DNA of 62,879 bases, taken from positions 1 to 62,879 of the forward strand of contig JBAYGC010000008.1 of the NCBI GenBank assembly GCA_041666845.1, in the 5' to 3' direction. Position numbers and translations under genes: made by a program. Positions 48,241 to 48,762 of the stretch are shown here, in pieces (position 1 is the stretch's first letter; each line of letters opens with the position of its first letter). This stretch comes from Patescibacteria group bacterium (GTDB taxonomy: Bacteria; Patescibacteriota; Patescibacteriia; UM-FILTER-42-10). The notes under the pieces are model-generated. The model was not told where the DNA came from. It ran no database searches and worked only from the letters and a program-made list of their open reading frames with translations.

Positions 48241-48665
48241 GAAGGCAAGGTGGGTCCGTCTTCGCGTGAGCGAAAAACTGATTAGTCGATGCTCGCCAGG
48301 GGATTCCTTTCGGAAACAGGCTACCTTGCGGTAAACCCCATCGCTTCATCAGTTTGGCATCGAAGATGCCGACGAACCCATGAGTCATAATACCCAGGGT
48401 ACTATTTATAAGTCTATTGGCAAAGGGTATTGTTAAGGAGGATACAATACTCTTAACCGACTTATAAATAGCACTCTGGGCACTACCCTACCTTACTGTT
48501 CACTAGGCCACTTACAAGCGATAGAATTATTCCAAAAGGAATATACCCTATCTTTTGGCTACTAATATAGACTAAGGAGGGGTTGTCTAAATGTTCGCCA
48601 CTTGCAAGCAGCTTGGTAAACAGTAACTACAGACTTACTATAGCGGTCTGGTGTTTTCCCTAAAT
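48241..48665 (+). ncRNA. Structured noncoding segment of about 420 nt; candidate large ncRNA with RNase P RNA-like motifs (identity and strand uncertain)
   Basis: There is no credible ORF. It has many perfect hairpins, including a roughly 90-nt rod at 48393-48481. GCGGTAAACCCC at 48328-48339 equals the conserved RNase P S-domain motif. An ACAGAC..CGGTCTGG block lies near 48629-48652. Three G-U pairs on the plus strand would be A-C mismatches on the minus strand. Confidence 0.4.
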
Positions 48666-48762
48666 AGGAAGTATAATGTTAGCACAATTTGCTTTTCTGT
48701 CAAGATGCAGGAAGGTTGATAGTAAAATATTTGGCTAACTTTAGCCACGAAATTTAACAACA

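Follow-up and report, generated by a model that had tools for sequence, protein, structure and literature searches.

We conclude that the segment from 48241 to 48762 of the window (by which we mean the whole 62,879 bp of contig JBAYGC010000008.1, assembly GCA_041666845.1, from a Patescibacteria group bacterium) very probably holds the gene for a structured noncoding RNA (ncRNA) of about 430 nucleotides (nt), which is encoded on the minus strand and belongs to a family of bacterial small RNAs (sRNAs) that we call the D1 family after its conserved core domain. This gap is bounded on one side by a cluster of minus-strand transfer RNA (tRNA) genes and on the other by mfd, which lies on the plus strand and starts at 48763. 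The RNA has the same sense as the adjacent tRNAs; the minus strand was chosen because the promoter, covariation, G-U pairs and covariance-model scores (all below) agree on it. In what follows G000 is the genome that carries the segment, C-numbers are its contigs, and G and L labels denote other genomes and other loci, respectively.

A structured RNA gene on the minus strand

An earlier note on this DNA had described 48241-48703 as an unclassified large ncRNA in a hairpin-dense segment that is free of open reading frames (ORFs), and this description stands: the RNA is conserved, covarying, promoter-driven, structured and absent from Rfam 15. These 463 nt contain no credible frame, only frames of 26-40 amino acids (aa) and one minus-strand frame of 88 aa that passes through the tRNA genes, and alignments with relatives show no in-frame conservation of the 88-aa frame or of an 11-codon plus-strand ORF. 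The latter, which had been listed as a micro-ORF, does exist, although the sister genus no longer has its ATG. The 463 nt fold far better than shuffled sequence, with -180.1 kcal/mol on the minus strand (z -11.7) and -153.6 kcal/mol on the plus strand (z -5.7), and all of the helices that had been named by eye are present: the rod at 48393-48481, TAGAC-loop-GTCTA at 48568-48589, GATAG..CTATC and GGCATC-GAA-GATGCC. A promoter of the form TTGACA-16-TAACAT, which had also been noticed before, is indeed found on the minus strand at 48703-48676; it has a TG extension and is directed toward the tRNAs. Written as TTGACA-N16-TGnTAACAT, it recurs throughout the genus and in G004 of the sister genus, and its -35 hexamer is kept in every relative from the genus and the taxonomic family. 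From the spacing of this promoter, transcription should start near 48669.

Each of the other three species in the genus carries the element (79-90% identity), and the two species of the sister genus both have its 48393-48628 region. In these relatives the sense equivalent to the minus strand again has tRNA genes downstream in the same orientation. The parts of the unit are listed in Table 1, where R2 is a covariance model described below.

Table 1. Features of the minus-strand RNA gene and its downstream tRNA genes, in the order of transcription (positions in the window)
Feature	Position	Strand	Fold z, minus strand	Fold z, plus strand	Basis or remark
-35 hexamer TTGACA	48698..48703	-			Promoter scan
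Extended -10 element TGCTAACAT	48676..48684	-			Promoter scan; conserved in relatives
Variable 5' leader with weak small hairpins	48629..48669	-			Poorly conserved in alignment; fold z -1.6
D1, conserved core	48491..48628	-	-7.1	-3.75	Model R2, 115.5 bits
GAA, 5' strand of internal loop	48594..48596	-			Below the mimic hairpin; partner AGUA at 48560-48563
Loop 1, AACCCCUCCUUA	48573..48584	-			CCCUCCU part resembles the anti-Shine-Dalgarno 3' tail of 16S ribosomal RNA
D2 rod, ~40 bp	48393..48481	-	-9.4	-8.0	Fold z; kept in both genera
Loop 2, AUCCUCCUUA, second anti-Shine-Dalgarno mimic	48434..48443	-			In D2
D3, multi-helix 3' domain	48241..48386	-	-4.3	-2.8	UUC, GCAA and GAAA loops; alignments
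tRNA-like 'Lys UUU', abnormal anticodon arm	48168..48240	-			Abuts D3 with zero spacer
tRNA-Lys(CUU)	48077..48154	-			Second gene copy with that anticodon
tRNA-like 'Pro AGG', C at position 33	47944..48015	-			Closes the unit; also kept in G001 and G003
U-tract CUUUUUUAUUU	47933..47943	-			Right after last acceptor stem; overlaps pth stop codon

D1 is built on a P1/P2 stem of ~28 bp that opens into a three-way junction. Its first arm consists of a GGC/GCC helix, a GAA/AGUA internal loop and a 5-bp hairpin that bears loop 1, and its second arm is the P4 hairpin. The internal loop appears to be sarcin-ricin or loop-E-like, a class assigned from its sequence pattern only. The direct repeat GCCACTT(A/G)CAAGC, which had been noted as a separate feature, is there in the sequence but is really the two strands of the quasi-palindromic helix P2 of D1. 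Both plus-strand TAAGGAGG strings that had been pointed out are likewise present, and they are the antisense of loops 1 and 2, so both RNA loops resemble the 3' tail of 16S ribosomal RNA. The E. coli 16S tail is AUCACCUCCUUA, and loop 1 matches this 12-nt sequence at 10 of 12 positions; the 16S ribosomal RNA of G000 itself is absent from the assembly.

The D1 RNA family

How widespread is this RNA, and is the predicted D1 structure maintained in evolution? Two models were used, R1 from six sequences of the host's taxonomic family and R2, the D1 model, from 33 sequences. R1 matches 47 of 151 genomes of the class and its matches span D1 alone. R2 matches 83 of the same 151 genomes, with a single copy in each except one genome, and 19 of 144 sampled genomes from other classes of the phylum; in G000 it has one match. 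Presence or absence of D1 among the 151 class genomes is consistent within taxonomic families. A pattern scan of 185,579 species genomes, whose matches were then checked with R2, found true members only under the record titles Patescibacteria group, Ca. Kerfeldbacteria, Falkowbacteria or Kuenenbacteria, apart from four automatically named metagenome-assembled genomes titled 'uncultured Gammaproteobacteria'. The ~60 pattern matches in other phyla are all chance matches and all fail R2. The D1 family has no match in Rfam 15 (28 homologous loci from other genomes), and a full-text literature search found no description of an RNA of this type.

Covariation, the check that the earlier note had proposed for homologs, was measured on a 33-sequence MAFFT alignment (A3) that was not fitted to any structure, and it gives clear support to the D1 fold. 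Compensatory changes occur in 35 of the 38 predicted D1 pairs. The cells of the D1 helices are paired in 89.8% of cases versus 68% in shuffled alignments and 36-47% in slid controls, and the covariation score is 0.72 versus 0.30 and 0.11-0.21, respectively. Helix 1 has changes on both sides in 26 of 27 pairs, with 91% of its cells paired. The strand is also evident here: 89.8% of the cells pair in the minus-strand sense versus 77.2% in the antisense (187 G-U cells), which overturns the earlier suggestion that G-U pairs favor the plus strand.

In the 33-sequence alignment CCCUCCU does not vary at all (columns C48-T54), and almost every one of 52 sequences from across the phylum retains it; among these, L099 has CCCCUCCAA and L100 has UCCUCCU. 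In both alignments hardly any change is seen in GGYGAA, AGUAGCC or the junction AAG.

D1 is normally a stand-alone sRNA, since it usually has its own promoter, often its own terminator, usually a convergent pth gene and seldom any tRNA nearby. A promoter of the form TTGNNN-16..18-TANNNT lies 3-54 nt upstream in the sense orientation in 44 of the 52 D1 loci, its -35 element nearly always TTGACA and often accompanied by a TG extension, and a T-run no more than 25 nt past the stem, or a small terminator hairpin, is found in at least 26 of the 52. Among 45 loci outside the host's taxonomic family, some of them in other classes, at least 32 have a convergent pth gene directly downstream; the gap between D1 and pth is often less than 60 nt and the two sometimes overlap. 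Only one of 44 such loci has tRNAs nearby. Thus, outside the host's taxonomic family the gene normally yields an independent sRNA of 95-150 nt, in most cases from a promoter of its own and often up to a dedicated terminator. In the window pth (plus strand, 47406-47939) is likewise downstream of the RNA gene and convergent to it. The neighborhood rpsU ... der-pth-RNA-mfd/dprA is strongly conserved. The rpsU gene, which encodes ribosomal protein bS21, is at 41370-41525 on the minus strand, ~7 kb from the RNA gene, and a spacing of 6-9 kb between rpsU and D1 on one contig recurs in more than 20 families of the class.

Enlargement of the RNA and its junction with tRNA genes

In the segment and in five relatives from the host's taxonomic family, no T-run is found right after D1 and D2 follows instead. 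D2 is present only in this taxonomic family, where both genera have kept it and some of its pairs are compensatory, and its AUCCUCCUUA loop is kept in all six members. It is probably a degenerate tandem copy of D1, because the D2 sequences of two relatives weakly match the D1 model (37.6 and 29.8 bits). At L057/L112 (genome G024) and L158, two complete D1 genes lie ~1.3 kb apart; a few genomes thus carry the gene twice, which shows that a duplication of the kind suggested for D1 and D2 can happen in this family.

D3 has a narrower distribution and is found only in the host's genus and in one related metagenome contig. It was not found as an independent RNA elsewhere among the 151 sampled class genomes, where the D3 model R3 matches only G000 and G001. 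Compensatory changes were seen in 11 of its 46 pairs in five sequences. In the four shortest versions D3 abuts the first tRNA or ends within ~10 nt of it. G004 (L008/L103, sister genus) has a GC-rich extension of ~360 nt between D2 and a tRNA-Tyr gene, which replaces D3. A pattern scan of metagenomes added only one new species with the extended form of the RNA.

All seven species with the extended RNA have a tRNA gene downstream in the same orientation, and the identity of the tRNAs changes from one to the next: Lys-like/Lys/Pro-like, Glu/Arg/Lys/Pro-like, Glu/odd/Arg/Pro-like, Met, His, Phe/Phe/Trp, and Tyr. The tRNA abuts the element or lies within ~13 nt of it in G000, G001, G003, L105 and G005; in G002/L102 it is ~130 nt beyond D3, and in G004 ~360 nt beyond D2. 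In G000 the tRNAs beside the RNA gene are redundant, extra copies, because a canonical tRNA-Lys(UUU) lies at C3:79959, the other copy of tRNA-Lys(CUU) at C16:30047, and three Pro tRNAs lie elsewhere in the genome. Two of the three tRNA genes beside the RNA gene have an abnormal anticodon arm (either a C at position 33 or an anticodon loop that has collapsed). Odd tRNA genes were also seen in other genomes: the downstream genes of G003 (L005/L107) include a tRNA with a 4-nt anticodon (tctc), and G098 (L055) has a CUA 'Pyl/suppressor' tRNA and one tRNA with a 2-nt anticodon. The abnormal downstream genes may be processing signals rather than decoders.

There is no terminator in the unit until after the tRNAs, where the U-tract of Table 1, which was read from the sequence and was missed by a simple terminator scan, is likely the terminator of the whole unit. 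We think it rather probable that the RNA is co-transcribed with the tRNAs and processed by RNase P. The whole unit of ~735 nt would be made as one transcript, and RNase P would cut it at the 5' end of the first tRNA or tRNA-like element and so leave the 3' end of the RNA at 48241. Any tRNA would serve for RNase P, which fits the changing tRNA identity, and such a role is a possible reason why tRNA-like genes can persist here in degenerate form. The two-headed form with its added domain and tRNA fusion is a new, enlarged version of the D1 RNA.

Possible functions and relation to known RNAs

What might such an RNA do? In the mechanism that we favor, the two exposed loops would pair with Shine-Dalgarno (SD)-like purine tracts, AGGAGG(G), of messenger RNAs (mRNAs) and compete there with the 30S ribosomal subunit, so that translation initiation would be tuned. 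By analogy with 6S RNA, which is a promoter mimic, the RNA would be a mimic of the ribosome's tail. The SD-pairing function, for which the C-rich-loop sRNAs RsaE/RoxS and RNAIII are precedents, is put forward tentatively, as somewhat short of an even chance. The best explanation of the locus as a whole is a minus-strand RNA of ~430 nt that is co-transcribed with tRNAs, receives its 3' end from RNase P and has SD-pairing loops, and we consider it about evenly balanced whether this combination is correct in all its parts. The invariance of the loop across the phylum would be understandable if its partner were under constraints as tight as those on the tail of the ribosome itself. A broader proposal can be made, which is possible but on the unlikely side: that D1-type RNAs, in bacteria with minimal sets of regulators, are a phylum-wide counterpart of 6S RNA in translation, a mimic of the ribosome's tail whose global competition is either for SD leaders or for some factor that recognizes the 16S tail, and that the form found here is multivalent, with two mimic heads and an ornate domain, and matured by RNase P through tRNA-like punctuation.

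Several points weigh against the pairing mechanism and the processing scheme. The start, ends and processing of the RNA are all inferred from sequence, and the covariation in D3 is weak and comes from five sequences. GGAGG is found within 20 nt of a plausible start in ~9% of 965 long ORFs of G000, a figure that is a crude upper bound, and a general SD sponge would have few clients because strong SDs are uncommon in this genome. A search of G000 found no conserved specific target: AGGAGGGG sites are not enriched ahead of ORFs, the sole 12-nt complement (C1:108200) is antisense within a 637-aa ORF, and the 35 ORFs that follow GGAGGG have no common theme. Finally, with 7-9 conserved loop bases the sequence cannot separate pairing from recognition by a protein. 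As to the SDs of the locus itself, pth and mfd have no obvious one. Elsewhere in G000 there are four near-identical palindromes, CCCCTCCTT-N3/4-AAGGAGGGG (C1:28868, C6:32296, C15:27763 and C24:8272), each followed by AAGGAC or AAGGAA, with ATG or TTG next in two copies. In a hairpin of this palindrome the anti-SD-like strand would sequester a strong SD, and it looks like a repeated small-ORF or regulatory element.

The main rival to mRNA pairing is that the loops are a protein decoy, in which they mimic the single-stranded 3' tail of 16S ribosomal RNA and titrate a factor that recognizes it; the GAA/AGUA internal loop and three-way junction would then be a protein platform. Candidates for the factor are bS21, Era, the nucleases that mature the 16S 3' end, and a MazF-type toxin that cleaves the anti-SD sequence. 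The KH domain of Era binds GAUCACCUCC, and MazF-mt3 cuts the anti-SD. The 10 of 12 match between loop 1 and the E. coli tail favors a decoy, as do the nearly invariant nucleotides of the junction and internal loop, which suggest a surface for recognition that goes beyond a simple seed, and the rarity of strong SDs in G000. There is also a precedent in OLE RNA, which binds bS21 through a CCUCCU mimic (PMC12054373). No partner gene accompanies the RNA, however, and pth is its only linked gene. Where bS21 is the proposed factor, the presence of the RNA and that of rpsU are independent across the 151 genomes (63/20/52/16, odds ratio 0.97), so bS21 is unlikely to be required for the D1 RNA; 20 RNA-positive genomes have no detectable rpsU, although the protein is short and could be overlooked. 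On balance we regard a decoy as unlikely, although it deserves more attention than the explanations that follow.

Could the RNA be a purely cis-acting leader of a tRNA operon, needed only so that the tRNAs are transcribed or processed and otherwise without a function? It does have a strong promoter on one side and tRNA genes without a spacer on the other, and tRNAs are downstream in every member of the host's taxonomic family. This explanation is nevertheless improbable, as D1 is an independent gene that has no tRNA nearby in 43 of the 44 loci outside that taxonomic family, the identity of the tRNA changes while the RNA stays, and the tRNAs at the locus are redundant or abnormal. Similarly, the tail-to-tail arrangement with pth at loci across the phylum, with its short or even overlapping gaps, and the U-tract that overlaps the pth stop codon would suit a structure that belongs to pth, either a bidirectional terminator or 3'-untranslated-region element or an antisense regulator of that gene. 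We think this quite improbable: G-U pairs and covariation favor the strand opposite pth, the RNA has a dedicated strong promoter, a terminator would leave the invariant 7-nt loop, the conserved junction and the internal loop unexplained, and ~550 nt and three tRNA genes lie between D1 and pth here.

The remaining explanation, a large RNA on the plus strand with kinship to RNase P RNA or, as a variant, a very divergent transfer-messenger RNA (tmRNA), signal recognition particle (SRP) RNA or 6S RNA, has a suitable size and helix density on its side but is very improbable, since the plus strand is disfavored by both folding and G-U pairs and each candidate fails on its own account as follows. A search of the segment with Rfam 15, which had been proposed as a check, matched tRNAs only, at gathering score and at E<=10; weak E-value matches to plant microRNA families and to Plastid-ycf2 were just the rod hairpin or tRNA antisense. 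The Rfam models for tmRNA, SRP RNA and 6S RNA are blank in all of G000, and this could be taken to favor the variant.

The RNase P RNA-like motifs that the earlier note saw on the plus strand did not hold up, and of its RNase P-like reading only the unclassified structured RNA survives. The RNase P RNA models RF00010 and RF00011 have no match in the segment at gathering score or E<=10, and a full-length type-A rnpB is present at G000:C17:20930-21414 (174.3 bits; RF00011 gives 43.7 bits there). Because the models fail and rnpB, normally a single-copy gene, lies elsewhere, an RNase P identity was rejected.

A tmRNA was first considered because ARAGORN and RF00023 are blank in G000 although smpB is present. 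RF00023 has no match in the segment, and four relatives (G002-G005) carry both a canonical tmRNA and the element. The search for ssrA located its 5' part (GGGGAUGUUACAAAAUCGAC...) directly after smpB at C15 ~40922-41038, where it is cut by the end of the contig; no tmRNA was reported in this 98.6%-complete assembly because of that cut. The RNase P and tmRNA readings are thus refuted.

For SRP RNA, AGUAGCCA.AAG is faintly like the AGCAGCCAAGG of helix 8, but helix-8 features, including a GNRA tetraloop, are lacking, and no Ffh or FtsY is there to bind it. Neither RF00169 nor RF01854 matches anything in G000, and 41 relatives likewise lack a match to RF00169. G000 has no match to PF02978 (SRP_SPB) or PF00448, the best 'hit' being MurD, and no DTAGR motif in six frames. 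An SRP54-type GTPase was found in none of the 41 relatives, and 151 genomes of the phylum gave one weak P-loop-type match; 14 of 14 control genomes were positive. If true, this absence of traces of the SRP pathway would mean a phylum-wide loss of co-translational targeting. Lastly, 6S RNA (RF00013) has no match, and the three-way junction of D1 is unlike the 6S rod, which has a central bubble.

The RNA nonetheless shares features with several known systems. RsaE/RoxS and the hairpins of S. aureus RNAIII are sRNAs whose C-rich loops block SD sites, and like them the D1 RNA is trans-encoded, has its own promoter and exposes C-rich loops complementary to GGAGG, of which there can be several. This likeness is functional only: there is no homology in sequence or structure (RF01820 has no match at E<=10), the D1 loop is a full anti-SD heptamer that is invariant over much of the phylum, and its scaffold is a 28-bp stem with a three-way junction and a GAA/AGUA loop. 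The parallel to 6S RNA would lie in the principle that an abundant RNA poses as the nucleic acid which a core machine binds. The gene is likewise usually single-copy, widely conserved and beside a fixed neighbor, but the mimicry here would be of the ribosome's tail and not of an open promoter. GOLLD and ROOL (RF01998 and RF03087) are large multi-domain RNAs often found beside tRNA genes; the present RNA matches neither in Rfam, is smaller, has a widespread 140-nt sRNA as its core, and occupies a fixed chromosomal site near pth and not a prophage context. As in MALAT1/mascRNA and in tRNA punctuation, a downstream tRNA-like element would let RNase P set the 3' end of an ncRNA; that precedent is eukaryotic or organellar, whereas here the parallel comes from the zero-nt junction and the missing terminator only. 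Type-A RNase P RNA is similar in size range, many helices and GNRA loops, but its covariance model fails, there is no P4, and there is no room for P1-P3. OLE RNA is a large, ornate bacterial ncRNA with a CCUCCU copy of the 16S tail in which the P6 anti-SD mimic is functional and is bound by bS21 (PMC12054373). The OLE mimic that bS21 recognizes is base-paired with an SD-like strand, whereas the D1 and D2 mimics are unpaired loops, the D1 RNA occurs in genomes without detectable bS21 (above), and it has no Rfam homology to OLE.

The Patescibacteria, or Candidate Phyla Radiation, make up a large share of bacterial diversity, and to our knowledge almost nothing is known of how they regulate gene expression. 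The D1 RNA is usually single-copy, sits at one chromosomal site, and is present in more than half of the sampled genomes of its class and in several other classes. Because its loop is as invariant as the ribosome's own anti-SD sequence, this RNA, absent from Rfam, is a strong candidate for a core translation regulator. The locus described here shows how such an RNA can grow: its head was probably duplicated, a folded domain was added, and tRNA or tRNA-like processing signals would stand in place of its terminator. The enlarged form thus offers natural variants for functional tests, as well as a possible reason for the existence of abnormal, redundant tRNA-like genes.

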